A DNA stretch of 64,000 nt from Actinomycetota bacterium (GTDB taxonomy: Bacteria > Actinomycetota > CADDZG01 > JAHWKV01). Both the position numbers and the translations under genes were made by a program. The stretch spans positions 114,459-178,458 of the forward strand of contig JAUJPC010000001.1 of the NCBI GenBank assembly GCA_030447305.1, in the 5' to 3' direction. Under the pieces are notes generated by a model. That model was not told the DNA's origin, made no database searches, and saw only the letters and a list, made by a program, of their open reading frames with translations. Of the stretch, positions 1,072 through 25,164 are shown one piece after another (positions within the stretch are counted from its first letter, which is position 1; every line of letters begins with the position of its first letter).

Positions 1072-1104
1072 CGGTAATCCTCAGGCCACTCCGGTTCAAG
1101 GACC

Positions 1105-1171
1105 GTATAACGTACCGGCGAATCAGCCGCTGAGAGCTTAGCGACTGGCGGTTTGTATTCGCCAGTTATAC
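1105..1171 (-). other. attC site
   Basis: GTATAAC 1105-1111 ... GTTATAC 1165-1171 with inner palindrome ggcgaat/attcgcc. Confidence 0.9.
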
Positions 1172-1250
1172 AGCTCGCCGACCGAGGCCGGCCTGGCGAC
1201 TTCTCGTGAATACGACTCTGTGGAGCTCCGTCCGCCGTAGGCTGTGGGTC

Positions 1251-1498
1251 ATGAAATCGGACTACGAACGAAAGCGGGCTGAGGACTTTTGGAGTCGTTG
1301 GACAGGCTTTGGGTCGCGACAGACTACCCGGAGTGCCAAGAAATTGCGCTGTACACGGACCAAGAGTTGAAGCAGATCCTCGGCGAATGGGAACAGGTTC
1401 GCAAAGCCTGCGATGCAATCTGGGCCAGGATCCGGGATGCCAGGCCAGACCTTCAGGGATGGGATCCGATCAGTGGCGAGCGTCCACTAGGTCAATAG
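1251..1498 (+). CDS. Hypothetical cassette protein in inverted orientation, probable frameshift near 1288
   Basis: ATG 1251 (MKSDYERKRAEDF) joins ORF 1289-1498 across a T-run. Confidence 0.45.
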
Positions 1499-1534
1499 CT
1501 ACGGCCAAGCAGCATATTCCCGTTCTGTAGGGAT

Positions 1535-1587
1535 CTCAGCATCAGCGGCGCAGGGGAAGCGAGCGCCATTGCATGCGCGAGTCATGC
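1535..1587 (-). other. Degenerate attC site
   Basis: gcatcagcggcg...cgccattgcatgc inner stem and GTCATGC at 1581, one mismatch from the complement of GCATAAC at 2545. Confidence 0.5.
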
Positions 1588-1932
1588 CCACTCCAGGCTC
1601 TCTCCTGCTTTAAGGCCCTCGATGGTTGGAACCACCTGCTGAACGACCGTCCCGAACTGGCCGATGAGCAGGACGACTAAAGTCCAAAAGGCGATCACAG
1701 CACGCGAACGACGAGTCCTAGCTTTGCCGAACAAGCGAAAGACTCCGACAACCACAAGAGTGAAAACAACCGAACTAAGCGCTCTGCCGAGCACTTCGGG
1801 TCCGGGGCCGCCTTGGCGAATACCGGCGGAGAGTGCAAGGAAGCTAGAGACGACCAGGAGGACGGTCGCCGCGATTTCCCATCTTACGGGAGACTTCTCG
1901 CGGGGTCCTTGGGCAGCGTCAAACTCATTCAT
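1582..1932 (-). CDS. Cassette membrane protein with about 3 TM segments
   Basis: 116-aa hydrophobic ORF with AGGAGAG RBS; stop overlaps the attC box. Confidence 0.65.
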   Translation of the reverse strand: MNEFDAAQGPREKSPVRWEIAATVLLVVSSFLALSAGIRQGGPGPEVLGRALSSVVFTLVVVGVFRLFGKARTRRSRAVIAFWTLVVLLIGQFGTVVQQVVPTIEGLKAGESLEWA

Positions 1933-2159
1933 AATCTCTCCTGCTCCTCCAATGATGCCGACAGGGTAAAGGCAGACTGCCGTTCACCTGAGTATAGGAA
2001 TTGGCCTTCAGGCGAGGGCGAGCGCAGCCTCCGAACGGCCCGTGCGAATAAGAACCTAGCCTCATGCGTGAGCAATGAGAATGCAACCTACGGGGCACCA
2101 CGGACGGTATTCTTCGGGTCTCACGGCATCGAGGTTCACAGCGTTGAAAGGAGGGCCGG

Positions 2160-2468
2160 ATGCTGATCATGGCCGTACACCAGGTGCCCGGCCTCACTCG
2201 GGAGAAGTACGAAGAAGTCGTCCGCAAGCTCACAAACGGTAAGTCCCGTCTGGAGTCTCCCTCCGACCTGCCGTTCGAGGGGCTGTTGGTTCATGCCGCT
2301 GGCCAAGGCAAGAACGGGTTCTGCATCATTGACGTTTTTGAGTCGGAGGAGGCAGTCGAGCGCTTCCGCGAAGCGGTAACCCCAATCGCACAAGACGTAG
2401 GTATCGAAGAGCCACCGGAGTTCTTCCCAGCCGAGACATTCTTCTCGCTTGAACGCCGGACCATGTAG
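2160..2468 (+). CDS. Hypothetical protein, ABM/dimeric alpha-beta barrel-like, inverted orientation
   Basis: GGAGG RBS; sequence GLLVHAAG...IIDVFESEEAVERF. Confidence 0.65.
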   Translation: MLIMAVHQVPGLTREKYEEVVRKLTNGKSRLESPSDLPFEGLLVHAAGQGKNGFCIIDVFESEEAVERFREAVTPIAQDVGIEEPPEFFPAETFFSLERRTM

Positions 2469-2544
2469 ACCTCGGCATCCCGAGTGAGGCAGTTCTGGTG
2501 CACGAATCGCAGACAAACCTGGTCGGAGCCTGAGGCGTCTTTCG

Positions 2545-2615
2545 GCATAACCGATTGGCGCTTAAGCCGCCGCCCGCGGCGGTCCCTTGAGTCGGTTTGG
2601 AGCGGGCAGTTATAC
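2545..2615 (-). other. attC site
   Basis: GCATAAC 2545 ... GTTATAC 2609. Confidence 0.9.
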
Positions 2616-3226
2616 GCCGACGCGCCCAAAGTACCGTTCCATTCGTAGTTCCAATTGAGGTAGCTCCTGAAGGACGTCGGTCGTGCCTGGATTTGCGAAC
2701 TTCGCCAGCCCGGCTTCAAGAGCTCGCCGGGCGCGGTCAAGATCTCCAGCGTAGTAGAAGAGGTCAGCTGCGTCATGAAAGTGCCAACCCTCCTTAAGCC
2801 AGAATTCGGCGGCGCCCTCGTAAGATGACAGCCGTTCGAGAAACGGCAATCCAGTCCGCTCCACGTCTTGCCAAAATTGCTCCAGAATCGGGTTCTTTTC
2901 TCCAGGACTGAAAACTCTTGCTCGTGAAGACGACCAGCCCGGAATAAGCCAGTCGTTGCTTCCCGCGATCCAGAAATCACTGCTTGCGTCTTCCCTTGCT
3001 TCCGCCGCCATCGAGCGAAGGGCCTGGACTTGACCCCCCACGACGTCCAAAAGATCGTCGCGTCAAGGGTGCTGTCGTGGCTCAGCACGAAGCGAATTAC
3101 CTGATCGAACTCCCCCACCTTTCGCGAGAACTTGAGTTGACTGGTGGAGTACGCAAAGTTGATCGCTTGAAACCGCGGGACGACTTCGGTTTCCACCGCG
3201 AGACGAAACTGCTCTTTTGGTCTCAT
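2610..3226 (-). CDS. Cassette hypothetical protein, possibly DUF4304/immunity-like, frameshifted near 3000
   Basis: N-terminus in ORF 2291-3226, C-terminus in ORF 2610-3050; stop lies inside the attC box. Confidence 0.6.
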
Positions 3227-3234
3227 CTCAGTGC

Positions 3235-3330
3235 GTATAACGGATCATTGGTTAAGCTGCGCGGCGCCAACGCGGAATGGCGTTACACGAGTCACTTACG
3301 CGCCGTGTCAGTTTCAACCGCTTGTTAGAC
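3235..3330 (-). other. attC site (96 bp)
   Basis: GTATAAC 3235 ... GTTAGAC 3324. Confidence 0.88.
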
Positions 3331-3412
3331 GCCGCCGCGGTGAATCACGCGATCAGAATTGGACACAGTTCTCAAGGACTTCCAGCGGGATCTCTGTACC
3401 TGTCACATGTGG

Positions 3413-3865
3413 TCATCCGGAAGTTTGCTGCCCGAGCTCTTGGGCAAGCCCGATGAGAATTCTTCGGGGCCCCGGATGTAGCAGAGCCGATACGTGTCTT
3501 CGTACTGGACCACTTCCCCGACGAGTTCCGCGCCGCGTTTGCCAAGCCGGGCGACCGTATCGTCGATGTCCTGCACGGTGAACATGACACGTAGATAACC
3601 GAGGGCGTTCACCGGGGCGCTGCGGTGATCGGCGACCACAGGCGGCCGCGAGGAATCGGGACACCTCGAGCCGGCTGTGACGGTCCGGCGTACGCAACAT
3701 GGCAATCTCGACGCGCATGTCCCGTAATCCAGTGACGCCATCTGCCCAGTCTCCTTCGATTGGGGCGCGCCCCTCGAGCTCGAGGCCAAGTTCGGTGAAG
3801 AATTCAATGGCGGCGTCGATGTCCTCTACCACGATGCCGACGTTGTCCATTCGCTTGATCGTCAT
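3413..3865 (-). CDS. VOC/glyoxalase family cassette protein, frameshifted
   Basis: RMDNVGIVVEDIDAAIEFFTELG ... LRVMFTVQDIDD ... YRLCYIRGPE spread over two frames; AAGGAG RBS. Confidence 0.85.
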   Translation of the reverse strand: MTIKRMDNVGIVVEDIDAAIEFFTELGLELEGRAPIEGDWADGVTGLRDMRVEIAMLRTPDRHSRLEVSRFLAAACGRRSPQRPGERPRLSTCHVHRAGHRRYGRPAWQTRRGTRRGSGPVRRHVSALLHPGPRRILIGLAQELGQQTSG

Positions 3866-3879
3866 GATGTCTCCTTGGC

Positions 3880-3942
3880 GTCTAACGGAATGCCGGGTCA
3901 GCCGCCGCCCGCGAAGCCGGCGGTCGGTTGCAGCCGGCAGTT
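3880..3942 (-). other. attC site interrupted at its GTT by IS110; remainder GTTAGGC at 8115-8121
   Basis: GTCTAAC 3880 ... ccggcaGTT 3940-3942; joining to AGGC at 8118 restores GTTAGGC, the complement of GCCTAAC at 8849. Confidence 0.85.
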
Positions 3943-4029
3943 GATACATATCGACCCTGATCCACTACTCGATGCGGGTCCTGTGCGAGTAAGGGACCTC
4001 CAGCTGTGGTTGACGACAGGGAGGTGGCC

Positions 4030-5319
4030 GTGGGGGACATCGGAGGGGTTGAGCAGGGCCGGTTTGTCGAGCGGATCCGAAACGCCGAAAGAGAGCGGTT
4101 GCTGGCAGCCCCGATCGACGTCGGCAAAAGGACCGCTGCAGCTCTGGTCTGCGACTTTTGGGGTGAGATCGTCACTGCCCCTTTCGAGTTCGATCTGAAC
4201 GAATCCGGCTTCACCAAGCTTAGGGCGCAGCTGGTTAGAGCGGAAGCCAGCCGGGACGTTGCCCTTACCCGGGTCGGGGTCGAGCAGGCCGGCCACTACC
4301 ACGACACCCTGGTTGCCCGGCTGCAGACCGAAGGCCTGGACGTGGTGGTGCGCTCAGAACCTGCTGCGCTCGGTCAAGACCGACGCCCGGGACCTGGCGG
4401 CGATGGCCGAGTTGATGATCCGTGGTCTGGGACGCCGCCCGGAGCTCGAGGACGGCCCGGTGGCCCGTCAGGCGGTCCTGGTCGCTCATCGACGGCGCAA
4501 GATCAAGGCCCGCAGGGCGCTTAAGAATCAGGTGCTCGCCACCTGGGATCTGGTCTTCCCCGGACTCGACGGGTGCTTTTCAGACATGTTGTCGACCAAG
4601 GTCGGCAAGGCGCTGCTGGCCGAGGCGATCACTCCCTCCCGGGTGCTTCATCTGGGACCCGAGCGCTTCCGGGCCTTCTGCGCCAACCGGGGAGTGGTGG
4701 TCGATCGTTTCAAAGCCGATCAGGTGATTAAGGCGGCCAGAGAAGCGTTTGCGCTGCCGGATGTGCGTGCTCAGGTGCTGCTCGAGGTTCTGGCGGTTGA
4801 CGCCAAACTCATGCAGAAGTTGGATTCGACCATCGAGGCGGCCGACCATTGTCTGGCCGAGGTCCTCGGTGACACCCCGGCACGGGTGCTCACTTCGATC
4901 CCTCATGTCGGGGTGGTTCGGGCCTCCAACTACGGCGGGGCGGTGGGCAACATCGACCGCTTCACCAGCTCGGCTCAGGTCTACAAGTTGAGCGGCCTGG
5001 TATCGAAACTGCACGAGTCGGCGGGCAAACGCCGGGGAGGTCTGGCGATCAGCAGGGCGGGCAAGGTCGAGCTCAGAGAGGCGATTCTGGAGCTCGGCAA
5101 GGGGCTGCGTCTGGGTGATCCCGACTTGGAGACTACGCCCGGCAGATGAAACAGCGGGGTAAGCCGGGCGGTGTGATCCTGTGCGCTTTGGGGCACCGGG
5201 CCAACCGACTGGCGTTCGCCATGATGCGCGACCAGAGCCGGTTCGAGCCCAAGGCGTGGCCGGCGCGAGAAGCGGACGGAGCCCTCATGCCCGACCTAGG
5301 TCGACCACCATCGAAGTGA
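4030..5319 (+). pseudogene. IS110 transposase/recombinase with an apparent deletion near 4350 and a frameshift near 5128
   Basis: PIDVGK, GVEQAG, KTDARD and ESAGK motifs across three frames; GGGAGG RBS before GTG 4030. Confidence 0.85.
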
Positions 5320-5461: not shown

Positions 5462-5665
5462 TTTCCCCATTGGGAGTACGAACGTAGTTGTCTGGGCCGC
5501 CCGGCTGCCGGGTGTCGGCGATCACTGAATCTCGCGAAACATGATCATCGAATCTCGCGGTGATCTGACAAATTGACGCTCCTCCCGCAGGGTTAATCCA
5601 CCCTGCGTGGTCATTGCCCTCCGAGGCTGTTGGCGACCAAGCCGAACAGCCAGGAGGGCTACACG

Positions 5666-6987
5666 ATGATGACTCAGGAGGAGTATTTGGACATTCCAGG
5701 ACTGAAAAGGCAAGGCTGGACCCTGCAGCAGATCGCCGAGGAGGTCGGGTACCACCCGGCGACGGTACGGGAGTGGATCCGCCGGGGTGGACCGCCACAG
5801 AAGCGGCAGATCGATCCGGCCAACCTTGTGATCAACGAGCACTGGGCCCAAGAGATAGCCATGCTGCTCAAGGCCAACCCCAACCTGCTCGCCACCTCGG
5901 TCGAGCGGCTGCTCCGAGCTAAAGGCTTCACCGGCAGCTACCCGACGCTCGCTCGGTACCTGTGCGGGGTGCGAGGCTCACGTCGGGGCCGGCAGGTCGA
6001 GGTTTCGGTTCCGATCGAGACCGCCCCCGGGGAGGAGTTCCAGTTCGACTGGTCCGACTGTTGCGACTTCGCCCGGCTGTGGGGGTGGGAGCAGCTGCAC
6101 TGTTTCGGGGCGATCCTGTGCTACTGCCGGCGCCGCCACTGGTGGTTCACCGACTCAATCGACCGCCACCACACCTTCGAGGGGCTGGTGCGCTTTTCGA
6201 GGACACCGGCGGAGTCCCCGGAGTCGGACGCACCGACCGGATGGGGTGCCTGGGTCGCTCCCACGGCCGGGTGTTTCGCTGGTTCGCTGAGTCGTTGGAG
6301 TTCGCCGCCTACCACGGCTTTTCCTTCAAGGCGTGCCAGGCCGGCGACGCCAAGCGCAAGGGCAAGGTGGAGCGTCCCTTTTGGGAGATGAAGGAGGCGT
6401 TCTTGCAGGAGGTGACCGTGACCGGACCACCCGCCAGCATCAACGAGCTGAACCGAAGGGCTGACGAATGGCTCGAGCACAACGTCCACCACCGGCCCCA
6501 TCGGGTGACCGGGATGGCTCCGGCGGAGCGGATCAAAGACGAGCTGCAGATGTTGGGGCCGCTTCCCCGCCTCAGATTCGACACCTCAAAGCGGGAGTCC
6601 CGCCAGGTCGGGCAAGCGGTTCCGATGATCGAGGTCGACGGGGTCTTCTACTCGGTGCCACCGGCCCTGGCCAGCCAGATCGTGGAGGTCAGGCTGCCGG
6701 TTGACCGGCGAATCATCGAGGTACGCCACCGGGGCCAGCTGCAGGTTACCCACCAGATTGCCCCCTCAGGTTCCGAGCCGGTCTGGGACCCGCGCCACCG
6801 CCGGGAAGCGGAGCAGATTGCACTCAGCCGCCACCGGCGAACCCCGAGGTTCTCCCCGCATGAGCAGGTCTTGGTTGATCTGCTCGATCTTGGTGAGGGC
6901 GACTACGACGTCGAGCCGGTTCGGCTTGAGAGCTATGACCCGGACTCAGCCTGCTGCGGTTGCGGCTGGGCAGGGGGTGTGCGGTGA
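5666..6987 (+). CDS. istA: IS21 transposase IstA, frameshift near 6195
   Basis: N-terminal HTH, ETAPGEEFQFDW, KGKVERPF and YSVPP motifs. Confidence 0.9.
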
Positions 6988-7751
6988 GCGAATCGGTGTA
7001 CGAGCAGATCAAAGACGGCTTAGGTTACCTAAAGCTCAACAAGGCCGAGGAGTGCTTTGCCACCCTGGTGGAGCAGGCACGAGACGACAAGTGGGACCAC
7101 CTGCAGTTTCTGGCCCGGCTGGTGGACGAGGAGGTGACCGCCACTCGCAACCGCCGGCTGGCTTCCCGCATGCGCTTCGCTCACCTTCCCGGGCGGCGCA
7201 CCCTCGAGGATTTCGACTTCGACTTTCAGCCCTCGATCGATCGCAAGCTGGTCGAGGATCTGGCCTCCTTGAGGTTCGTCAAAGAGGGAAGGCCAGTTTT
7301 GTTTTTAGGCCAGCCCGGCTGCGGCAAGACCCACCTTGCGGTGGCCCTTTGCACCCTGGCGGTGGAGGCAGGGTACCGGGGCTACTTCGCCTCGGGAGCC
7401 GACATGTGCGCCTCGATCGCCGCCGCCTACGCCGAGGGCACCTTCAAGCTCAAGATGCGCACCTACACCGGTCCTTCGGTCCTGGTGATCGATGACGTCG
7501 GGCTGGTGCCGCTCGACCGGGCGGCGGGAAACGCCTTCTACCAGGTGGTCAACCGCCGCTACGAGATGGGCTCATCTACCATCGTCACCACCAACCGGGG
7601 GCTGCCCTCCTGGGGCGAGGTCTTCGGTGACTCGGTTGTCGCCGCCGCAATTTTGGACCGGCTGATGCACCGGGCGGTGGTTTTCAACATCAAGGGGCCG
7701 TCCTGGAGGATGCGCGAACACCAGGCCCTCGCCGAGGCGGTAAAGCAATGA
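6984..7751 (+). CDS. istB: IS21 helper ATPase IstB
   Basis: GQPGCGKTHLA Walker A, LVIDD, AAAILDRLMH. Confidence 0.95.
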   Translation: MSESVYEQIKDGLGYLKLNKAEECFATLVEQARDDKWDHLQFLARLVDEEVTATRNRRLASRMRFAHLPGRRTLEDFDFDFQPSIDRKLVEDLASLRFVKEGRPVLFLGQPGCGKTHLAVALCTLAVEAGYRGYFASGADMCASIAAAYAEGTFKLKMRTYTGPSVLVIDDVGLVPLDRAAGNAFYQVVNRRYEMGSSTIVTTNRGLPSWGEVFGDSVVAAAILDRLMHRAVVFNIKGPSWRMREHQALAEAVKQ

Positions 7752-8142
7752 GGGACTGCTCTGTGCCGTACTCAAGCCCCTCCCCAACTCCCAAACGCGG
7801 CTCTCAGCCCAACTCAGGAACTGAAAAATCTGCCAGAACCGTTATGAAGGTGTCTGGTGGCCCAAAAGAGCGCAAAGGAGGTCGCTGCTAAGGTTAATCG
7901 AGCGAGGAGCGTCACTCTGAGTAAATCGCGAATTTCGGTGATCATAAATCGCGGTTTTCAGTGATCGCCAAGACCGGGTGAGTCCGCGTAGATCAGCGAG
8001 TGCCTCAGGGATCGAACATCTCGCCGGCGCCGCCGACCTCATAAACGAAAATTCCCCCTCATCGAGGGGCTGGAGCGCCTACTGCCGGGTCGGGGATTGA
8101 CAGGAACCACAGTTGTTAGGCAGCGGTCGCAAGCGGTGACTA

Positions 8143-8838
8143 TCAAGGCAAGTGGTCGCTGCAAAACTTCTGGACGAACAGAAGCATTTGTTTGACCTGT
8201 TCCTTGTCGTAATTCGAGAAACGACCATGTGCCGCATCATTTCGCAAATTTGCCCACGAGGTGATCTGCTTCTGAACGAGAGGACCGTACAGTTTTGCTT
8301 TGTATAGGGCGTTGTTGAGCGGATCAATCGTGAACGGCTTCCCGTCTTGATGTGACGTTTGAAGCCCACTGGAGTCAGCAATTTTTCGAAGCGAGTCTTC
8401 AAGTACCGCCCCCAAGAGCACGGCTGAAGCATCCTTGTAGCCCTCCTCGAGCAAATGCTCTGCCATTTCAAGAAAGTCCGCGAAGATCTCCGCCCGCAGT
8501 AACCCCTGCAAGCTCAATATCAAGCCAGAGCTAACGTCGTGTGCAACGCTGCGAAGGATTCCAACTAGTTCACTAACGTGCTCGTAATGGTTGGAATGGA
8601 TAACTGTGAAGGCCGGAGTTGCCAACACTTTCTGCATCGACTGGTGGTAGTGGCTCTCTTTTCCATAGAGACGCAAGACGAGTTGCCCACCCCTTACCGC
8701 TACGGACGACAACTCTTCAATTTGATCATGGCCTAGGGACCGGTCAGCTCTGCTCGCCTCAGCTGACAGCCGGCTAGCGCTTTCGACTAAGTCCTTGACC
8801 TCGTTCGCGACCAGTTCGGTAACCTGGCTAACTGGCAT
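8143..8838 (-). CDS. HEPN-domain (DUF4145-like) cassette protein
   Basis: AEHLLEEGYKDASAVLLGAVLED and Rx4H motif RNDAAH. Confidence 0.8.
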   Translation of the reverse strand: MPVSQVTELVANEVKDLVESASRLSAEASRADRSLGHDQIEELSSVAVRGGQLVLRLYGKESHYHQSMQKVLATPAFTVIHSNHYEHVSELVGILRSVAHDVSSGLILSLQGLLRAEIFADFLEMAEHLLEEGYKDASAVLLGAVLEDSLRKIADSSGLQTSHQDGKPFTIDPLNNALYKAKLYGPLVQKQITSWANLRNDAAHGRFSNYDKEQVKQMLLFVQKFCSDHLP

Positions 8839-8848
8839 CAGGCCTGCT

Positions 8849-8914
8849 GCCTAACGTGATGCCCGGTCAGTCGCAGCCCGCGAGGCCGGCTGTCGGTTGT
8901 ACCGGCAGTTGGGC
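8849..8914 (-). other. attC site
   Basis: GCCTAAC 8849 ... GTTGGGC 8908. Confidence 0.9.
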
Positions 8915-8920
8915 AGCTCA

Positions 8921-9609
8921 CTATGCTGTCCCCTCGTACTGGACGAGCTCCCATGGGTACACCGCGAGACAGTCATAAATATGCTGACGCACCCTATTTG
9001 AAGAGACTGCCGCGAGCCGCTGGATGAAATCTGCGGATTTAGTCACGTCTGACTTCTTTACGGAGCGGCTGGTGGACACACGGTGAGCAATTTCACCCCT
9101 CAACTCGACTCGCCTGGTTAGGCGTGCGCGGGCTGAATCCGGTGTGGTCCTATGCCACGCCAGCAATCCGACAACCGTGTAATTCCGAGAAGATCCTCGA
9201 AAAGGGCGTCGATCTGCTCAGGCTTGGGAGTATTCAAAGCCCCGGCGAAGCGCTTCAAAATCTTGTCCCGGTGCGCTTGAAGTATGACTTGCCATCCTGT
9301 TCCAGCGAGTTCCCAGACTCGGCGTTCGTCGTTGCTGCTCCTAACCTCTCTGGACGCCGCAGTAAGGACTTTTGACGGAAACACCGAGTGAGTAGTTGCG
9401 GCGGCCAGCATCGTGTCAAACGCACTGGTCGCAAGGTCTTCAACGTACGCCTCCCAGCAGGCGACCAAGAGCACCACGCCACTCTTGTTCAAGACGACGA
9501 TGTCGTGACGCCTCCCCGGGCGAGTCCCGGAAATCTCCTCGTGTATTGCAACAAGGCGTAAGACCTCATAGGTGTTCGAATTCAGGTTTGCGACATGGGT
9601 GGGGGGCAT
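8921..9609 (-). CDS. HEPN-domain (RiboL-PSP-HEPN-like) cassette protein, frameshift near 9165
   Basis: NKSGVVLLVACWEAYVED, LNTP and Rx4H motif RGEIAH. Confidence 0.75.
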
Positions 9610-9665: not shown

Positions 9666-10909
9666 TCATGCCGCCTCCAGCGGGGTGAGGTGAACCTGGT
9701 ACCCGAGAGCGTTCAGCTGCTGCGTTAGCTTACGGGCATGCTGCACCTTGTTCTGTCTGGACATGAACCAGTCAGGGCCTAGGTCCTTGTAGGGAACCAT
9801 GTCCTCAAGGATGTGGAAAGCGGCAACCAAGATCGAGTGGGCGACCGCCACGGTGGCCTTGGCCTGGCCCCTGCGGCCGCGGAGCCGAGCGTACTGGGCG
9901 AAGAGGTAGGTGCCTTTGGCCTTACCGGCAGCCTTGGCCGCCTGCGTGAGGTCCATGTGGAGCCACTTTGAACCCTTCCTGGTCTTGCCGGTGTGGCTCT
10001 TGCCCGCAGACTCGTGCTGGCCGGGACACATTCCCGCCCAGGACGCCAGTCGTCCTGGTGAGCCGAATCGAGCCATGTCGACTCCGATCTCAGCGATGAT
10101 CGATTGAGCGACCCGCTTGTCGACTCCGGGAATGGTGTCGAGCAGTTCAACCTGACGCTCGAAAGGGGCAATGACCACCTCGATCTCGTCGGAAAGCGAC
10201 TGGATCAGCTCGTCGAGAAAGTCCAGCTTGGACAGGATCGCCCCTACTACCAAGGCATGGTGAGAGGTGAACCGCCCGGTCAGGGCATCCTTGAGGTCGG
10301 GAAGCTTCCTGCGCAGCGTTCCCTTCGCAAGATCGGCCAGGATCTGTGGGTCGGTGGTGCCCTCCACCAAATCAAAGCCTTCAGCATCGCCTTGCCGCTG
10401 ACGCCGAGCACGTGAGTCGCCACCGACGACAACTTGATGCCGGCGTCCTGGAGCACCTTGTCCAGACGCTGCGCCTCGCGAGAGCGCTCCTCGATCTGGG
10501 CCTTGCGGTAGCGGGTCAGATTGCGCAGCTCCCGGATCTGCTTGGGCGGCACGAAGCTCGGTTTCACCAGACCGTGCGCCACGAGCTGGGCGATCCAGGC
10601 AGCGTCGGCCACATCGGTCTTGCGGCCCGGGACGTTGCGAAGATGGCGGGCGTTCAAAAGCCAACACTCGAACTCATCCTCGAGCATGTAGTAAACGGGC
10701 TTCCAGTAGACCCCGGTCGACTCCATCCCAACCACATCGACGTCGAAGGCCTTCAACCAGTCCCTCAGCGCAAGCAATTCGACAGTGGTGGTCTTAAAAG
10801 TGTGGGTCTGGGACTGTCGGCTTGCGCCTTGATCCCCGAACCTGACGCAGGCGACCACAGTGTCCTTGTGCACGTCCAAGCCTGCACACCTGTTGATGAG
10901 CGTGTCCAC
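9666..10909 (-). CDS. IS110 transposase/recombinase, frameshift near 10370
   Basis: GLDVHK, GMESTG, KTDVADA, TIPGVD and HESAGK motifs. Confidence 0.92.
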
Positions 10910-11125: not shown

Positions 11126-11187
11126 CTAACGGATCGGTCGATTAGCCGCTAGTGCAGCCGGCCGTCAGTCGTCCCGGCCATTTAGGC
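11126..11187 (-). other. Remainder of the attC interrupted by the second IS110
   Basis: CTAACGGAT ... TTTAGGC 11181, one mismatch from the complement of GCCTAAC at 11461. Confidence 0.65.
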
Positions 11188-11204
11188 AGCAGAGGATGCC
11201 CGGC

Positions 11205-11430
11205 TCAGACCCACCGGTCGCATTTGCAACTCGGCATGATGCACTTAGCCGCTCCAGGATGCTCCGTCTTGAGATGTTTGCAGCGTCGACACTTGACACG
11301 GCGTTCTTCCCTTCCAATCGCGCGATCGCGTTTTTGTGCCGGGGTGAGCTGTTCGATGTGCAGCTGAGTCCCCGTCCGTCCCTTCATATTTCCCCCATCG
11401 GAAACCCTTACTCCAAGAACATTGCGTCAT
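11205..11430 (-). CDS. Small Cys/His-rich cassette protein, possibly frameshifted
   Basis: CRRCKH...EH...C...CKC pattern; fills the cassette between attC sites. Confidence 0.45.
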
Positions 11431-11460
11431 GTTGTTCTCGTCACCGAACTAGTCAAGTCT

Positions 11461-11522
11461 GCCTAACGTACTGCCGTTTGAGCCGCCGACGAAGGAGGTC
11501 GGCTTCCAAACGGTAGTTATGT
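11461..11522 (-). other. attC site
   Basis: GCCTAAC 11461 ... GTTATGT 11516 with ccgtttg/caaacgg stem. Confidence 0.92.
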
Positions 11523-11528
11523 CGCATC

Positions 11529-11741
11529 TCATCGGAGACGATTGAACTCTTCTACAGAGAGTCCGGCGTCTTTCACGATCCCACCCATGGTGAATGCGTT
11601 CACCGGGTTCGCTCGAGGAATCGTCAGAATTCGCTGCCCGTTCGACATGACGACGTGCTTGCCCTGCCGAACGATATTGAACCCGGCTTTCTGGAGGGCC
11701 CGCACAGCTTCCTGGTGCGAGACGCCCGGAATGCTCGGCAT
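11529..11741 (-). CDS. hicA: HicA-family toxin
   Basis: ALQKAGF..VRQGKHVVM..LTIP..GIVKDAGLSVEEF. Confidence 0.88.
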   Translation of the reverse strand: MPSIPGVSHQEAVRALQKAGFNIVRQGKHVVMSNGQRILTIPRANPVNAFTMGGIVKDAGLSVEEFNRLR

Positions 11742-11944
11742 TAGATGGCGACTTCGATCTCCCTGATCTCGGCGCCTTCCAGTTGCTCATCAGCTACGGA
11801 GAGGTAAGCGTGAATGGCATCCTTGACGTTCTCGAGAGCCTCGTCTTCGTCGCTTCCCTGAGACCAACAACCGGGAAGCCCGGGCACTGACACGGCAACG
11901 CCTTCATCCGATTTAAACAGGGCTACCCGAAACCGCTGAGTCAT
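11741..11944 (-). CDS. hicB: Short HicB-family antitoxin
   Basis: VSVPGLPGCWSQG..EALENVKDAI; TAATG overlap with hicA. Confidence 0.88.
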   Translation of the reverse strand: MTQRFRVALFKSDEGVAVSVPGLPGCWSQGSDEDEALENVKDAIHAYLSVADEQLEGAEIREIEVAI

Positions 11945-11982
11945 GTAATCAGTGTACAGAGGGGATCTGACGACATCAGTCG

Positions 11983-12105
11983 ACATAACGGATTAGCGCC
12001 TCAGCCGTCCGCCCGCGTAGCCGGCGGTCGGTTGCAGGCATAACGGATTAGCGCCTCAGCCGTCCGCCCGCGTAGCCGGCGGTCGGTTGCAGGCGCTAGT
12101 TATAC
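11983..12105 (-). repeat. attC site with a tandem 55-bp duplication
   Basis: 11984-12038 equals 12039-12093; complete attC runs GCATAAC 12038 ... GTTATAC 12099. Confidence 0.9.
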
Positions 12106-12149
12106 GGCCTAGGCACCTCAACGATTGCGGCCTTTGGGACCTAAGGATT

Positions 12150-12401
12150 TCATCGCCTCAGCTGCTGCCTCCCGTCGCCTCCGCAGTTTAGGTATGTACA
12201 TCGCTCAAACACTGCGTAAGCCGACCCGAAGATTAGTGACATGAGAGCTAACACCGGCCAACCGGGATCGAATTGGCCCTTCGTCTGAACGAAGAAAGTG
12301 CCAACCGCAAAGAGGCCACCGGAAAGAATCCCCCAGAACCAAGGGTGCTGATCCTCATGCTTCTTCAGGTGCTGGCCGAAGCTTGCCTTGGGATCCGTCA
12401 C
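12150..12401 (-). CDS. Cassette small membrane protein
   Basis: 83-aa ORF with two hydrophobic segments, between attC sites. Confidence 0.65.
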   Translation of the reverse strand: MTDPKASFGQHLKKHEDQHPWFWGILSGGLFAVGTFFVQTKGQFDPGWPVLALMSLIFGSAYAVFERCTYLNCGGDGRQQLRR

Positions 12402-12409
12402 CTCCGCCC

Positions 12410-12470
12410 GTATAACGGACCGCGGATTGAGCCGCCGACAAAGGAGGGCGGCTCCAATCCGCAGTTATGC
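12410..12470 (-). other. attC site
   Basis: GTATAAC 12410 ... GTTATGC 12464 with gcggattg/caatccgc stem. Confidence 0.92.
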
Positions 12471-12739
12471 CGTGACCCCGAAGCGCTAGAAGATAGGACA
12501 CGGCTATCCCGAACTCTTCCGTCGAGACTTTGCAGACATTCCCTTTAGGAGGCTACCGGCGAGCACCATGAGTGGCGTCATCACGGCCGCAACAACCAGA
12601 TCAACTTCGCCCTCCAAAATCAGATCCGTAACAGCGAACGCAACGGCGAATGTGAGACGATGATCGCTCCGCCCAGAAACGGCTTTTCATTCTGCAACTG
12701 CTTCCAGCGGTCATGGCCGGTCATCTCATCATCGAATCG

Positions 12740-12807
12740 GCATAACGGATTAGCGCCTCAGCCGCCCGCCCGCGTAGCCGGCGGTCGGTTGCAGGCGCTA
12801 GTTATAC
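12740..12807 (-). other. attC site, near-identical to 12038-12105
   Basis: GCATAAC 12740 ... GTTATAC 12801; one substitution relative to the 12038 copy. Confidence 0.92.
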
Positions 12808-12965
12808 GGCGAGTGCGGTCTGTTTGAACTTGAGGCATTAACTAAGTGTGACCGGGATTGCGCTGGCCGCCGGAGAAGATGTTCGAGAGCGGAGAGCCAG
12901 GCCCTTGATTCAGCGCTCAGAACTGCCACGCGCGAGCCCCCTGATCTTCACGAGCCAACGTGTCC

Positions 12966-13026
12966 GTATAACGGAATGCCGGCTCAGCCGCCGCCAAAGG
13001 CGGTCGGTTGTAGGCGGCAGTTATGC
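12966..13026 (-). other. attC site
   Basis: GTATAAC 12966 ... GTTATGC 13020. Confidence 0.92.
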
Positions 13027-13216
13027 GGTGGGCCATGGATCCGATGCAAGCTCCTTTTTGGATCAATCATCGTTCCTTCTTTCGCCTTCGCCAATTGAGC
13101 CACCGCCCAATAAGCAATGCCACTGCCGCGCCGATGGCACCAGAGATCAGTTCCTGGACAACAAAGTCACCAATCAAGCCTGAGCCACGTATTCCAGTGA
13201 TCCATTTCCTGTGTCG

Positions 13217-13268
13217 GCATAACTACTATTTCGCGAGGTCTCGATAACACGCCGCTCCTCGATAACAC
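13217..13268 (-). promoter_or_regulatory. Putative attI site with two 11-bp direct repeats
   Basis: Last core GTTATGC (minus, 13217-13223) has no palindromic partner; CTCGATAACAC at 13240-13250 and 13258-13268. Confidence 0.75.
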
Positions 13269-13351
13269 TCCCACTTCCTGGCGTTCGAAGTCGTGTTATG
13301 AAGCTCATCAGATGAAGTCGTTTGTGGTCATGCGACTCCTCTTAGCGTTAT

Positions 13352-14406
13352 TCAGTCAGTGTACCGCGGTAACCGTTCGGTTGACCCAAATCTATCCAGC
13401 GGACTCCTCACGCCATGGCCGCCTCGATTGAGAACATGGGTGTAGATCTGAGTGGTCTTTACGCTGGCATGACCCAATAGCTCCTGGACCGTTCTGATGT
13501 CGTAACCGTCTTCCAAGAGGTGCGTAGCGAACGAGTGCCGCAGTACGTGAGGAGTTGCGTGTTTAGCGATCTGAGCTCTCAGGCTGGCGCTGCGGACTGC
13601 CTTCTGCACTACGGACTGGTGTAAGTGGTAGCGATATTTGATGCCGTCGTGTCATCAGTGAAGTAAGTGGCCGCAGGGAAGAGCCACTGCCAGCCCCACT
13701 CCCTTTCAGCGTTGCGGTATTTGCGGCCGAGCGCGTAAGGCAAAGGCACCCGCCCCAGTCCCATGGTCAGGTCTTTGTCATGAATACGTTTCGCACGTAC
13801 TAGATGGCTCTTCAATGGATTCATGACCAGGTCGGGCAGCATGGTGATTCGGTCTTTGTTGCCCTTCGCCCGTTTGATCGTTATCTGCCGACGCCCGAAA
13901 TCGACATCTTTGGCCCTTAGGTTGAGCGCTTCATCCAGCCGTAGGCCGCTTCCGTAGAGAAGCTGGCAGATAAGCAATGGAAGGCCATCCAGCTGCTCGA
14001 ATAGCACACGCACTTCCGACCTGGATAGAACCGTGGGCATGCGTTTGGGCTTTCGCGCCCTGGCGATGTTCTCCATATGTTCCAGAGGCTGACCGAGCAC
14101 CTTGGAATAAAAGAATAGGAGCGCACACAGCGCCTGATTCTGGGTGGAAGCGGCAACATCCTCGCCGACCGCCAACTGCGTAAGGAATGCATTGACCTGC
14201 TCTTCACGCAATTCATGGAGGTCGATGCCACCATGAAAGCGAAGAAAGCGCTCTATCCAGAACAGGTAAGCCTTCGCGGTTCTCTCACCGTAGTTTCGAG
14301 CACGTAGGACCCGGCGTGCTCTTTCTACGGCTTCGTCTTGGGGTTTCCGAACAACCTGCAGACGAGGACGCGCATTGGTTAGGCGAGCTTCCCGGGACGT
14401 ACTCAA
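13352..14406 (-). CDS. intI: Integron integrase (tyrosine recombinase), single-base frameshift near 13645
   Basis: [22 protein letters not shown], integron-specific insert [50 protein letters not shown]. Confidence 0.96.
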
Positions 14407-14631
14407 CAGGCACTCCGATCTGGGGAAGTCGTGAACTATCCTTCAAAGTTACCGCCTGCATAGGACACTTCTGGCCACCCGCGCCATGCGGTTCAGCGAT
14501 AGGCGAGTGTTCCTAACTCAGGGCCCTCTTCAGGAACTGGCAGGCTGCCACGTGGATGGCCAGCATTGCCTCCGGGAAGCGGATACGGCAACATGACGCA
14601 ATAAGTTTGGCATCAGCCGGGTCCGAGGGGC

Positions 14632-16226
14632 TCAGGCCAGGGCCACAAGCTCCAGCAGGTCGTCGGACCAGTGGATGTACTCGCCGTCGGGCATCGACAC
14701 GACATGGGTCGGCTGCAGCTGGTGCACGAAGGCCTCGTCGTGGCTGACGATCATGAGCGTGCCCTGCCAGGACTGCAAAGCATTGGTGATGCCTTCCCGT
14801 GAGATGGGGTCGAGGTTGTTGGTCGGCTCGTCCAGCAGCAGCAGGTTGTGCTGCTTGGCAGCCAGTTGAGCCAGCGCAAGTTTGGTCTTTTCTCCACCTG
14901 AGAGGGTGCCGGCGTTCTGGAACGCCTTGTCGCCGGACAGGGTGAACATGCCCAGGAAGGCCCGAATCTGCTGATCGATCAGCACGCCGTCGGAGCGCAG
15001 ATGGTCGATTACAGCTTCCTCCGGCCGCAAACCCTCGTGCTCCTGGGCGTAGTAGCCGAGCGACACATTCATTCCGGGAGCCACCGTCCCCGAGACCGGC
15101 TCTATCGTCTCCGAGAGGATCTTGAGAAGAGTCGACTTGCCTGCGCCGTTCAGCCCCATGACCAGCAGGCGGTCGCCGTGGGTGACCTCGAACGACAGAC
15201 GATCGAAGACCTTGTGCTCGCCGTAGCTCATCGCAAGGTTTTGCACTCTCATCACCAGGCGGCCCGGCTGCGGAGGAGGCGAGATCCTGAACCGGACGGC
15301 GCTTTCCTTCGCAACCCTGGTGACCTTGGTGGCTCGCATCTTCTCCACCCGCTTGTCCAGGTTCTTGGCGACCCGAGCACGGGAGGCGGTCTGATGGCGC
15401 ATGCGGTCGGCGAGGGTCTTGAGGCGCTGGATGTCCGCTTCCTGGATATTGGCTATCTTGTTGCGCCGCTCGACGTCGGCCGCCCGAGCCTCTCGGTACT
15501 GGCTGTACGTGCCCTTGTAGGTGTTCATCTGACTGTTGTCCAGGTGCAGAACCCGGGTGATGGCCGAGTCGAGCAGCTCCAGGTCATGGCTGACGATCAA
15601 CAGGCCGCCCGAGTACGAGCGCAGGAAGGACATAAGCCACGCCTTGGCATCCACGTCGAGGTGGTTGCTTGGCTCGTCCAGCAGCAGAGTCTCGGCTCGG
15701 CGAACAGAGAGTGCGCCAGCTCGACCCGGCGCCGCTCGCCTCCGGAGAGCGTGTCCATCGGACGGGTCATCTCGTCTCCGGTGATGCCCAGTCCGGCGCA
15801 GATACGCCGGGCCTCGGACTCGGCCTGGTAGCCGCCTGCCAGCCGGAAGTTCTCCTCCGATCGGGTGAAGCGGGCGATATTACGCTCCGACGGGTCCTCC
15901 TCCATTACCTGCTGAAGCTTGGTCAGGCGGTTCTGCGCCTCGGTAAGGTCCCTGCCGGCCAGGACATACTCGAGGGCCGTGGAGAGCTCCTGCCCTGCGT
16001 TCAGCTTGGCCTGGCGCAAATAGCTGTAGGTCCCTTGGAAGCGCACAGACCCCTCGTACTCGACCGCCCCGGCAGCCTCCTGCGACAGGATCGACATCAG
16101 CGTGGATTTACCGGCGCCGTTGCGGCCGACCAGCCCCACCTTGTCTCCGGGTGCGACGTTGAACGACGCGTCGTCGAGCAACAGGCGCGTGCCGATGGAG
16201 ATATGCAGACCTTTGACCTGCAGCAA
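14632..16226 (-). CDS. ABC-F family ATP-binding protein, frameshift near 15695
   Basis: Two ABC domains (GRNGAGKST, LSGGE, GLNGAGKST, DEPTNNLD) and no TM segments. Confidence 0.9.
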
Positions 16227-16286
16227 GCAGAGTGCCTTTCGTCGTTACGAGGGGTTGCGCCGGCGCTGGGAACGCCGCGGTCGAGG

Positions 16287-16718
16287 CTACGAGTTTCGGA
16301 CCTCGTCCGTCCATGGTCCCATACCACCGAGGTGGTTGACCGAGATATGAGTGATAAATCCGGGAGGAGGATCCGGCATCGCAGGAAACTTCACGTCCGG
16401 CCCCAGGTAGATGTGAGCGAGCTCCTGAAGGAGCTCGGGCGCCCCACCCTCGGTGATGGTAGCCCGCCCCTTGATGATCAGGTACTCCCGAAGGCCCCAG
16501 GAGTTGAGCTTGGTGGTCTCGAAAGAGACTGTCACCCGGGGGTCCCGTCGCATGTTGCGGAGCTTCTTCTGGTCGTGAAGAGTGGCGATGACGATGTTGT
16601 CATCGACGTCGATGCCGGCCCACGCCAGCGACACGTGGATGCTACCGCTCTCGTTGAGTGTGGCCAGGTGGGCGTAGGCACCCGAACGCACCACCTGCTT
16701 TGCCGATTGGGGAAACAC
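16287..16718 (-). CDS. PPOX-class F420-dependent oxidoreductase
   Basis: AHLATLNESG..QKKLRNMRRDPRV motif. Confidence 0.85.
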   Translation of the reverse strand: MFPQSAKQVVRSGAYAHLATLNESGSIHVSLAWAGIDVDDNIVIATLHDQKKLRNMRRDPRVTVSFETTKLNSWGLREYLIIKGRATITEGGAPELLQELAHIYLGPDVKFPAMPDPPPGFITHISVNHLGGMGPWTDEVRNS

Positions 16719-16770
16719 CCGGGACTCCTTACTGCGGGATGAGCTGAACTGTCGCCATGATCCCACGAGG

Positions 16771-17057
16771 CGGGCCACCTTCAATGCCCAGGCAGCCGCC
16801 GGGGTCTATGAAACCTATGAATTCCACATCGACGGGGACGTTTTCCATCTGACGGTCCGAGACAGCACACTCCAAACCCCCCGGGGCCCCGCGACCGACC
16901 CCGACCTGGTCTATAAGACGGACATTCCCACGCTCATGGCCATCGGGGCCTGGCAGGTGGATCCGGTCGGCTGTGGCCGCCGGGAAGGGTCGAGATGACC
17001 GGCGAACCTGAAGTGGCGCGGCGATGCCAGCAGATCTTCGGGCTGACGCGCCCCTGA
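16771..17057 (+). pseudogene. Remnant of an SCP2-like sterol-binding domain, resembling the C-terminus of HxlR-SCP2 regulators
   Basis: Manual translation RATFNAQAAAGVYETYEFHIDGDVFHL..GPATDPDLV..RVEMTGEPEVARRCQQIFGL; no start codon, frameshifted. Confidence 0.55.
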
Positions 17058-17092
17058 GCGGGGCTCGCGTAGCGTCAGCCGCCCGGTTATAA

Positions 17093-18157
17093 ATGACAAC
17101 TATGGACGAGATAAGGCTCACCCAGTATTCCCACGGCGCCGGCTGAGCTTGCAAGCTCGGTCCCAGTGACCTGGCGCAGGTCGTGCGCCGCTTGGGGGGC
17201 AGAACAGGGAAGGCTGATCCAAACCTTCTCCTGGGCCTCGACGTGCCCGACGACGCTGCCGTCTACCGGATCAACAACGAGACGGCCCTGGTGCAAACGG
17301 TCGACTTCTTCACCCCGGTGGTGGACGACCCCTATCATTGGGGCGCTATAGCGGTGGCCAACGCCATCAGCGACATCTACGCGATGGGGGCGACCCCACT
17401 GACCGGCCTGAACCTGGTTGGCTGGCCGAAGGACCTGGACATGGACCTGCTCGCCCGGGTGCTGGAGGGCGGAGCGGACAAGGCCGATGAGGCGGGGTGC
17501 GCGGTGGTCGGTGGCCACACGGTGGACGACCCCGAACCGAAATTCGGTATGGCGGTGACCGGGATCGTGCATCCGGACAAGATCGTCAAGCTGTCCACGG
17601 CCAGCCCCGGCATGTCGATCATTCTTACCAAGCCCCTCGGGATGGGGATCGTCGCCACCGCCTGCAAGGCGCAGCGGATCGACAAGGCACTGCTGAACCG
17701 GGCTACCAGTATGATGGCAACCCTCAACGCCGGCGCAGGCCAAGCGATGGTTGAGGTGGGCGCCGCTGCCGCCACCGACGTGACGGGATTCGGCCTCATT
17801 GGACACCTGCGGGGGATGCTGGCGGCAAGTGGCTGCTCGGCCAACCTGATGGCAGACAGCGTTCCGATCCTGGCCGGCGTCGACGAGCTCGCAAGGCAGG
17901 GCCTGGTGCCGGGAGGGACTCGACGGAACCGGGATTATTTCGGACCCTTTGTAGACTTCGATGCGGAGATCGACCCCATGTTGAGGGTCATCATGTTCGA
18001 TGCCCAGACGTCCGGAGGACTGCTGATAGTGGTGGAGAGGTCGAAGCAGGAGGCGATGGTGGAGGCTTTGGGCAAGTACGGGACTCCTGAGGCGGCGGTG
18101 ATCGGGCGTATCGCAGACGGTAGCCCGGGCACCATCCGGGTTGCCGGCCGGAAATGA
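17093..18157 (+). CDS. selD: Selenide, water dikinase containing selenocysteine (UGA 17144-17146)
   Basis: MTTMDEIRLTQYSHGAG-U-ACKLGP is in frame with ORF 17183-18157 (DDAAVY, DFFTP, TDVTGFG, DAQTSGGLL). Confidence 0.95.
17168..17182 (+). promoter_or_regulatory. SECIS-like hairpin of selD
   Basis: GACCTG-GCG-CAGGTC starting 21 nt after the UGA, with G in the loop. Confidence 0.65.
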
Positions 18158-24497: not shown

Positions 24498-25145
24498 GTG
24501 GACGGGTTGAGCCAGAAACGTAAAACTTTGTACTGGTTGGCCATTGTCGTTGCGGCGGTCGGGGCGCTGACGGCCGGTTCTCCGGGTGACCTGTTCGATC
24601 CTCCGGCGGTGGAGGGCGAGCCGGTCCCCGCGCCGTCCGTGACGCCTCCTGTGACGCCGGATGGGCAGAACCCGAGTCGTCCGGCGGGGGTTCCGGCGGG
24701 GGCACAGGAGGGGACGGTAGCCAGGATTGTGGACGGCGACACCATCTGGGTGGCGATCAGTCATGGTGGAGGCCCGATTCCGGTGGGCGACGAGCACCGG
24801 GTCCGGATGCTGGAGATCGACACGCCGGAAGAAGCGCGGCCCAACCACCCGGTCCAGTGCGGCGGCAACGATGCGAGCGCCTTTGCAAAAGCTGAGCTGC
24901 CCCCCGGGTCAACCGTGTACCTGCTTGGCGACCGGCAGGACAAGGACAGGTTCGGACGGTACCTCAGGTACGTCTGGGATTTCGAAGGCGAGTTCTACAA
25001 CGAGAAGGCGGCGGCCGAGGGATATGCCAGGGCGGTCCTGTACCGCCCGAACGATCGGTACATCAGCCGGATGAGGCAGGCCGAGGCCTCGGCAAGGCAG
25101 GACGGCAGAGGCATGTGGGGCCGGGTTTGCGGTGCAGCGCGCTGA
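24498..25145 (+). CDS. Thermonuclease (SNase-like), secreted
   Basis: IVDGDTI, RMLEIDTPE, DRFGRYLRYV, GRGMWG. Confidence 0.9.
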   Translation: MDGLSQKRKTLYWLAIVVAAVGALTAGSPGDLFDPPAVEGEPVPAPSVTPPVTPDGQNPSRPAGVPAGAQEGTVARIVDGDTIWVAISHGGGPIPVGDEHRVRMLEIDTPEEARPNHPVQCGGNDASAFAKAELPPGSTVYLLGDRQDKDRFGRYLRYVWDFEGEFYNEKAAAEGYARAVLYRPNDRYISRMRQAEASARQDGRGMWGRVCGAAR

Positions 25146-25164
25146 CTGGAAAGGAGCACGCGTT

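Follow-up and report, generated by a model that had tools for sequence, protein, structure and literature searches.

The 64,000-nucleotide (nt) stretch of DNA analysed here, referred to below as the window, is part of the 986-kb contig C4 of genome G000, and contains what is very likely a real chromosomal integron of the Actinomycetota, with the integrase gene intI and the gene cassettes on the same strand (Table 1; coordinates are window positions unless a contig is named). A wider reading, to which we give a probability of roughly 0.55, is that the Actinomycetota, for ten years cited as a phylum where integrons do not become established, hold long-resident integron lineages, found in about 6% of the sampled species and concentrated in a few uncultured families with small genomes, that nearly all of these are of the 'inverted' type with a lineage-specific attI region, in which a promoter-like motif and a leader open reading frame (ORF) possibly drive the cassettes, and that the window genome is an end state with two platforms, each of which has lost its integrase. 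An initial annotation, made from the window sequence alone, had already proposed a chromosomal integron with an inverted integrase in an apparent actinobacterium. Its identification of an integron held, as the integrase scores above a curated cut-off, an attI site is predicted, and the attC recombination sites show covariation.

For the integrase, the curated NCBIfam profile TIGR02249, 'integron integrase' (length 315, cut-off 265 bits), was used. The initial annotation had missed that intI is divided over two frames and is one base short. The N-terminal piece by itself reached 272.1 bits (profile positions 3-229) and the C-terminal piece 127.4 bits (242-314). Pfam recognised a SAM-like N-terminal domain, and the two halves of the Phage_integrase domain were divided between the two pieces. 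In an alignment with VchIntIA (2a3v), residues 30-248 of the N-terminal piece match residues 9-228 and the C-terminal piece matches residues 247-319, leaving 229-246 uncovered; the N-terminal piece includes, in this alignment up to residue 228, the stretch that distinguishes IntI from Xer recombinases. Compared to eight full-length relatives, one base is missing near 13640-13650, after which the conserved sequence continues in the next frame, and alignment with the relatives showed that the catalytic motifs R, KGNKDR, HVLRHS, LGHAS and IYTHV are kept on either side of the break. A second integron integrase was not found in the genome by tblastn.

A repeat search revealed a family of imperfect palindromes of 60-75 nt with the form ..ATAAC..GTTAT.., and ten of these were used to build the attC covariance model R1. 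This model gave ten clear attC sites, all on the minus strand and located between 13030 and 1101, with scores of 31.6-89.6 bits, and added two poorer ones, a 55-nt partial duplicate with 23.6 bits and, at 11218-11129, a degenerate site with 13.8 bits. Nowhere else in the 64 kb did a score exceed 14.6 bits. Because the ten training sites match by construction, independent support comes from eight untrained sites that R1 picked in a row on contig C1 of the same genome (209691-216275, 27.9-75.3 bits), and from the arrays that it detected behind the intI genes of relatives, although both attC models that we used, R1 and R2, were trained on sites of this lineage. The window sites have one consensus with a mean column identity of 65%, and fold into imperfect hairpins that have the R''/R' boxes (..AAC / GTT..) and, in one of the arms, extrahelical bases. 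Compensatory changes were found in 8 of the 21 predicted pairs of the ten window attCs. In an alignment of 63 attCs, which was fitted to the model and thus favours pairing and covariation statistics, 87.5% of the cells were paired versus 71.7% in shuffles, and the covariation score was 0.377 versus 0.126, a value reached by none of 500 shuffles, with slid partners giving at most 0.091. A feature unlike textbook sites is an unpaired spacer of 4 nt beside R' in 53 of the 63 attCs, where the matching part of the 5' arm is paired.

Since both strands of an attC read ..AAC...GTT.., the boxes alone are insufficient to call the strand. When read on the minus strand, the 5' arm has 4 unpaired bases versus 2 in the far part of the 3' arm in 59-60 of the 63 sites, and it has more unpaired bases, with a net surplus of two, in all 63. 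In attCs that have been studied, the R''-L'' arm, located 5' in the top strand, is the one with the two extrahelical bases. The cassette ORFs are also on the minus strand, starting approximately 10-45 nt from the preceding attC and ending before the next one, and in the predicted attI the direct repeats are on the intI side and the core is on the cassette side. The cassette ORF strand, the asymmetry of the attC arms and the orientation of attI thus agree that intI is transcribed toward attI and the array, the 'inverted' layout, confirming the same-strand arrangement that had been proposed.

The sequence beside intI, at the head of the array, contains a probable attI site. It spans 84-135 nt beyond the last base of the stop codon (13352), in agreement with the 85-135 bp given before, and its core starts 129 nt past the stop. 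In all six relatives with an integron integrase (see below) a core of the form (A/G)GTTA(T/G)(A/G)C is located 121-180 nt past the intI stop, preceded by two repeats of the GTTAxC type. By analogy with integrons that have been studied, IntI would recognise attC as a folded bottom strand and attI as double-stranded DNA; circular cassettes would be inserted at G↓TT of attI, and excision would take place between attCs. With intI directed toward the array, transcription of the cassettes would depend on read-through from intI or else on a promoter in the interval that separates intI and attI. A motif TAYACTGA is found 129-149 nt ahead of the attI core in the window and in five relatives (L048-L052), while its offset from the intI stop ranges from -12 to +31; with a fixed distance to attI and a variable distance to the stop, the motif is tied to attI rather than to the protein. 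The conserved TAYACT at this fixed attI distance, which has a Shine-Dalgarno sequence and a short ORF behind it, is a tentative candidate for the cassette promoter. A LexA/SOS box (GAAC-N4-GTTC, at most one mismatch) upstream of intI was also considered, but was rejected since the one imperfect window site, at -38, is absent or located elsewhere in 11 relatives and is therefore not conserved.

The surroundings of the integron are those of a chromosome. On one side the window has the gene order nusA, infB, DHH phosphoesterase, truB, ribF, pnp, M16 peptidase, dapB, dapA, RNase J and ftsK, which we take to be the actinobacterial order, and the other flank of the array consists of secA, prfB, ftsE, ftsX, an S41 protease gene, smpB and the transfer-messenger RNA (tmRNA) gene, the latter at C4:113441-113797, 662 nt ahead of the window. 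Among the best 120 matches of the PNPase, all organism names are 'Actinomycetota bacterium' or 'Acidimicrobiales bacterium', except for one 'soil metagenome' row, and the top named match is 93% identical. Judging from these PNPase matches and the gene order, the host, an uncultured soil bacterium, is a member of the Actinomycetota, as the initial annotation had supposed.

A search with the N-terminal IntI piece (E <=1e-20) gave matches in 7 of 41 genomes. Besides G000 itself, these were 5 of the 19 further genomes from its family and 1 of the 7 from two other families in the order, whereas the fourth family had none among 14. Co-oriented attCs were detected behind intI in G007 (27 sites at E <=0.05, over 17 kb), G012 (6 sites), and G010 and G021 (one site each before the contig end), and none were found in G005 and G013, where the contigs are short. 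The unpublished genome G021 accounts for one genome in the counts and one tree row, and no conclusion hangs on it. A phylogeny of IntI, proposed in the initial annotation as a check, was made from 56 rows with a quick method, using the Shimodaira-Hasegawa-like approximate likelihood ratio test (SH-aLRT) as the only support measure and the genome's own Xer as outgroup. It grouped the window IntI, with 95% support, in a clade of 17 rows with the IntIs of all six relatives from its own order and NCBI rows labelled Actinomycetota, of which two are identical and one is near-identical to the IntIs of G010, G013 and G005. The rows with a divergent layout (three loci and IntI1) fall together, needing one change; the deep branches are weak (52%). 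Of the labelled rows on the window's side of the tree, that of Synechococcus among them, every one is co-oriented, with the deep branches unsupported and no Treponema or other spirochaete rows present.

To see how far this extends, 401 genomes drawn evenly from the Actinomycetota and 14 control genomes were screened with TIGR02249. The cut-off was passed in 24 of the 401 genomes (36 at E <=1e-30) and in none of the controls, and the matches were concentrated in a few families, e.g. 7 of 10 and 7 of 21 genomes. In a census of 25 loci from 22 other genomes, from which the unpublished G116 was left out, 19 had attCs downstream on the integrase strand, three (G083 and two of G338) had only weak matches on the divergent side (20.8-27.7 bits), and in the remaining three none were found. 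The 40 nearest loci from other phyla comprised 14 co-oriented and 4 divergent ones, the rest having no match. The element belongs to a lineage of IntI that is peculiar to this group of actinobacteria, and integrons elsewhere in the phylum usually share its co-oriented layout.

The genome contains a second array, on contig C1, with eight co-oriented attCs and no intI (C1:209691-216275, within locus L055, 209691-217410). At its head is a 42-nt attI-like stretch (C1:216764-216805) that is 88% identical to the window attI, with the core GTTAGGC at C1:216773-216767. No similarity to an integrase was found in the 605 nt from this site to the contig end; these contain repeated GGTTGATA words, and the last 43 nt match the end of contig C2. 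The C1 cassettes are of a defence type and encode a 422-amino-acid (aa) TIR protein (PADLOC PDC-S35), a methyl-directed restriction enzyme and an HNH protein. The array resembles the category CALIN, described in PMC4889954, in having attCs without an integrase, but differs from it in keeping an attI-like site at its head, and for this reason it looks like an integron whose integrase has been lost or lies beyond the contig end.

It is highly improbable that we are looking at an artefact of assembly or binning in which an integron from another phylum was joined to an actinobacterial contig. Integrons break assemblies, and the attC repeats do branch assembly graphs here, as contigs from soil metagenome run X1 stop at 12013, 12795 and 13223; moreover, a contig binned as Fimbriimonadaceae has an IntI fragment that is 73% identical and the same attC type. 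However, the 986-kb contig has actinobacterial core genes on either side (secA-prfB-ftsEX-smpB-tmRNA and nusA-infB-pnp), six genomes of the same order have IntIs of the same clade, and three genomes of the phylum that consist of 1-3 contigs have such integrons inside contigs of 1.8-2.7 Mb. Furthermore, a 1644-nt Logan contig of X1 spans 13194-14837 with no gaps, one differing base and a depth of 13.3, a second one covers 14819-17872 with no gaps or differences at a depth of 12.6, and the depth of the array is 13.1. The sibling strains in X2 and X4, other samples of the same study, likewise cover the junction between intI and the ABC-F ATPase gene that borders the integron. The join of integron and core genes, which the initial annotation had named as a possible chimera, is therefore not chimeric, with the caveat that all four runs come from one study. 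A more plausible, though still unlikely, explanation is that a larger mobile island, landing by tRNA-type genes, carries the integron as its cargo, which would make the integron a recent arrival instead of a resident. In three genomes of the same genus that have no intI (G001, G003 and G004), homology to G000 ends at the 3' end of the tmRNA gene and resumes at 14634-14636, and the entire 15.3 kb that separates tmRNA and ABC-F in G000 is missing, with 2.3-2.9 kb of unrelated DNA without attC in its place, so this interval is hypervariable within the genus. The integron of G005 begins approximately 140 nt behind tRNA-Lys(CTT), adjoining a homolog of the window gene at 25132-26013, the neighbours of the G010, G012 and G021 integrons map to C4 at 857, 644-655 and 911-920 kb, respectively, and shared synteny of the integron among the relatives was not found. 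The G+C content also drops, from 0.63-0.68 beyond 15 kb to 0.55-0.61 in the array. Against an island speaks that no repeat of the tmRNA 3' end longer than 13 nt, as expected at an island border, was present in the 26 kb downstream, that the genome has no second integron-type integrase, that genes for transposition or conjugation are absent from the locus except for those of insertion sequence (IS) elements, and that the IntI tree groups the integrase with its host lineage. The differing positions among relatives indicate that the element is chromosomal yet not fixed in place.

Whether the integron is still active depends on the frame break in intI. The gene is probably a true pseudogene and its integrase inactive, and the integron platform in this genome looks switched off. 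Seven split genes are located within 1-16.2 kb, namely intI, two IS110 transposase genes, IS21 istA, and the HEPN, glyoxalase and ABC-F genes, whereas none were seen among 33 ORFs scanned in 17-62.6 kb, and a confinement of breaks to the accessory 16 kb, with none in 33 housekeeping ORFs, is unlike random error. Also in favour of a true break, ABC-F is a single intact ORF of 531 aa in the congener G004. The intI break site is not a homopolymer, nor are the other indel sites, and the X1 contig carries the same intI break with no gaps. The second array, on C1, also lacks an integrase. We consider it doubtful, but clearly less far-fetched than a mobile island, that the frameshift and the nearby 1-nt breaks are errors of the consensus, or represent a minority variant that the assembler fixed, and that the cells hold an intact integrase and an active integron. 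This would fit with the finding that every catalytic motif flanking the break is intact, with the depth of merely about 13, and with the Mb-scale contigs with 100-N gaps, which suggest a long-read or hybrid assembly. In addition, among the indels listed, an additional base behind 9156 and an additional G behind 15696 are present in the sibling strains of X2 and X4, which would restore the HEPN and ABC-F frames, and the window state is repeatedly a 1-nt deletion relative to the siblings. A genome-wide count of same-strand frame switches by G+C content at third codon positions (GC3) gave 261 candidates, mostly ordinary gene overlaps, and was uninformative on assembly error. Integron integrase genes of other genomes (L029-L032, L047, L080 and others) are also interrupted by stops or frameshifts, and broken intI genes seem to be common in such integrons.

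Among known systems, the window element is most like the group of 'inverted integrase' integrons, which is named in PMC4889954 and PMC13323075, and was found to be paraphyletic in the former. As in this group, the attC array shares its strand with intI, and attI follows the 3' end of the integrase gene. The nearest relatives from other phyla, of which 14 loci have this layout and 4 the divergent one, are 44-53% identical over stretches covering most of the query. Inverted integrases reportedly occur, in a list said to go back to Boucher et al. in 2007, in Treponema denticola, other Spirochaetota, Cyanobacteria, Planctomycetota and Chlorobi. What sets the window apart from the known members is the host phylum and the position of its IntI in a clade of its own with other Actinomycetota. 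With sedentary chromosomal integrons, such as the Vibrio cholerae superintegron, it shares the chromosomal location with core genes on both sides, a single attC consensus, a toxin-antitoxin pair, small unknown ORFs, IS elements in the array, and an IntI that clusters with those of its own order; the defence-type cassettes of the C1 array likewise resemble these integrons. Unlike sedentary integrons, the window intI is co-oriented and frame-broken, and its chromosomal position differs from genus to genus and even inside the genus, so related species do not have it at the same locus.

Class 1 mobile integrons consist of the same three parts, and the window attI carries a pair of direct repeats upstream of its core, which is also the layout of attI1. 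However, IntI1 is only 43.5% identical to the window IntI and is divergent from its cassette in the plasmid examined, and both Tn402-type genes and resistance genes are absent from the window. The best plasmid matches have identities of 47.7% (to a cyanobacterial plasmid) and 43.5% (to IntI1), which does not fit with a mobile integron of classes 1-5. The initial annotation had noted the lack of a visible transposon boundary; this is true in the sense that no transposition module surrounds the integron, but IS boundaries are visible inside the array. Neither the three IS elements that interrupt the array nor the variability of the locus next to tmRNA had been noted there.

Several observations weigh against our main reading, that of a chromosomal integron with the inverted layout in a member of the Actinomycetota, in which the platform looks switched off. 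The window array, with approximately 12 cassettes, is far smaller than classic sedentary integrons, and the variable position of the integron between genera and within the genus is a poor fit to a strictly sedentary, vertically inherited element. The agreement of X1 on the frameshift is not independent, since X1 is possibly the source sample of the assembly. Model R2 missed the attC of the sole class 1 cassette (dfrA14) in L056, which makes 'no attC found' weak evidence, and the layout counts given above therefore lean toward this attC type. Finally, a scan of 12900-14700 for the sigma-70 consensus yielded no promoter-like sites.

Integrons are rarely reported in Actinomycetota, as the initial annotation stated, and this applies to the papers but not to the genomes, considering that an integrase was present in 24 of the 401 sampled species. 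A 2016 survey of the complete genomes then available (PMC4889954) and a 2022 survey of RefSeq (PMC9024848) found complete integrons to be absent from Actinobacteria, and a 2026 soil study reports integrons to be virtually absent from the phylum (PMC13323075). A review (PMC8618304) lists Actinobacteriota among the phyla that bear integrons. Protein labels of the type 'integron integrase [Actinomycetota bacterium]' already exist at NCBI, and our literature search, with most subscription journals and supplements outside it, did not find a paper describing native complete integrons in Actinomycetota. This locus and its relatives suggest that the gap in the surveys is one of sampling, between cultured and uncultured lineages, and remove the need for a barrier against integrons in the phylum, at least for these families. 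They would also provide a high-G+C, Gram-positive-type host for studying cassette expression in co-oriented integrons, but the main value lies in the phylum-wide pattern that this integron indicates.

Table 1. Features of the integron and its border in the window
Feature	Position	Strand	Remarks
ABC-F ATPase gene	14632..16226	minus	borders integron; two frames; same-genus homology resumes at 14634-14636
intI	14406-13352	minus	two ORF pieces in different frames
intI N-terminal piece	13609..14406	minus	265 aa, TTG start; SAM-like domain, first half of catalytic domain and IntI-specific insert; ends at out-of-frame TAG
intI C-terminal piece	13352..13609	minus	85 aa, other frame; HxxR, H and Y catalytic motifs
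TACACTGA motif	13356..13363	minus	overlaps final intI codons; fits -10 pattern (TANNNT); followed by Shine-Dalgarno sequence and short ORF
attI (predicted)	13217..13268	minus	direct repeats GTGTTATCG at 13268-13260 and 13250-13242, then core G↓TTATGC at 13223-13217
attC 1	12962..13030	minus	78.3 bits; cassette 1 = 13222-12972, just 36-39-aa ORFs
attC 2	12736..12811	minus	89.6 bits; cassette 2 = 12971-12746
attC 3	12406..12474	minus	70.2 bits; cassette 3 = 12745-12416
Cassette 4	ORF 12401..12150	minus	83-aa membrane-like ORF
attC 4 and partial copy	11982..12109	minus	attC 4 at 12109-12034, 83.8 bits; 55-nt tandem copy at ~12036-11982 without R'', 23.6 bits
Cassette 6	11457..11986	minus	HicB-like antitoxin 11986..11741; HicA-like toxin 11741..11529; attC 5 at 11526-11457 (63.4 bits)
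Degenerate attC	11129..11218	minus	R'' = CCTAAA; weak, 13.8 bits, E 0.36
IS110-family transposase gene	9666..10909	minus	two frames, inside a cassette; DEDD_Tnp_IS110 in 10909..10280, Transposase_20 in 10667..9666
HEPN (RiboL-PSP) cassette gene	8845..9609	minus	two frames (9609..9118, 9166..8921); attC 8918-8845, 69.7 bits
231-aa cassette ORF	8143..8838	minus	HEPN-like C-terminus, 26.1 bits, below cut-off
IS21-family element	5508..7978	plus	52-nt inverted repeats at ends; istA in two frames, istB intact
Second IS110-family transposase gene	4006..5149	plus	two frames
Glyoxalase/bleomycin-resistance-fold cassette	3231..3948	minus	attC 3948-3876 (72.8 bits); gene in two frames (3865..3413, 3807..3403); attC 3292-3231 (31.6 bits)
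146-aa cassette ORF	2541..3050	minus	weak TPR match; attC 2619-2541, 57 bits
Last cassette	1101..2540	minus	1.4 kb; 116-aa membrane-like ORF 1932..1582; distal attC 1175-1101, 70.9 bits

As listed in Table 1, the array consists of twelve units over 12.1 kb, three IS elements included, and most of its cassettes have one co-oriented ORF and each ends in an attC, with three small cassettes having nothing beyond ORFs of 36-43 aa. No attC was found beyond 1101 as far as the tmRNA gene, and PADLOC gave no matches with eight cassette proteins of the window. The partial attC duplicate provides a second R' (GTTATGT) without R'', and may be the scar of an aberrant recombination or slippage event. In each of the three IS elements, a transposase gene is split over two frames. 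Of the IS21 element, the genome contains three further copies (C4:479740, C2:473178 and C3:129595) with 99.7-100% identity, which suggests recent transposition, even though the window istA is in two frames. Some Logan contigs contained joints between attCs (8900>12735, 11504>11986, 11504>12982 and 12791>12984), but we rejected these as cassette rearrangements, since their sides are only 22-30 nt and the attC repeats suffice to explain them.

The contig binned as Fimbriimonadaceae that was mentioned above (locus L033, DATLGQ010000030.1) has nine attCs behind its IntI fragment, scoring up to 70.8 bits, as high as actinobacterial ones, and this suggests either that integrons of this type are shared across phyla or that the contig was mis-binned. 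Elsewhere in the window, a GrdB-family gene (glycine/sarcosine/betaine reductase B; 29733-31037, minus strand) contains an in-frame TGA (30014-30012) with a further 93 open codons behind it, and this TGA looks like a selenocysteine codon, and a gene of the AIR-synthase family at 17183-18157 is possibly selD. Ahead of the window, a raiA RNA motif (Rfam RF03072, 136 bits) is located upstream of secA, at L054:3122-3427 (C4:105121-105426).

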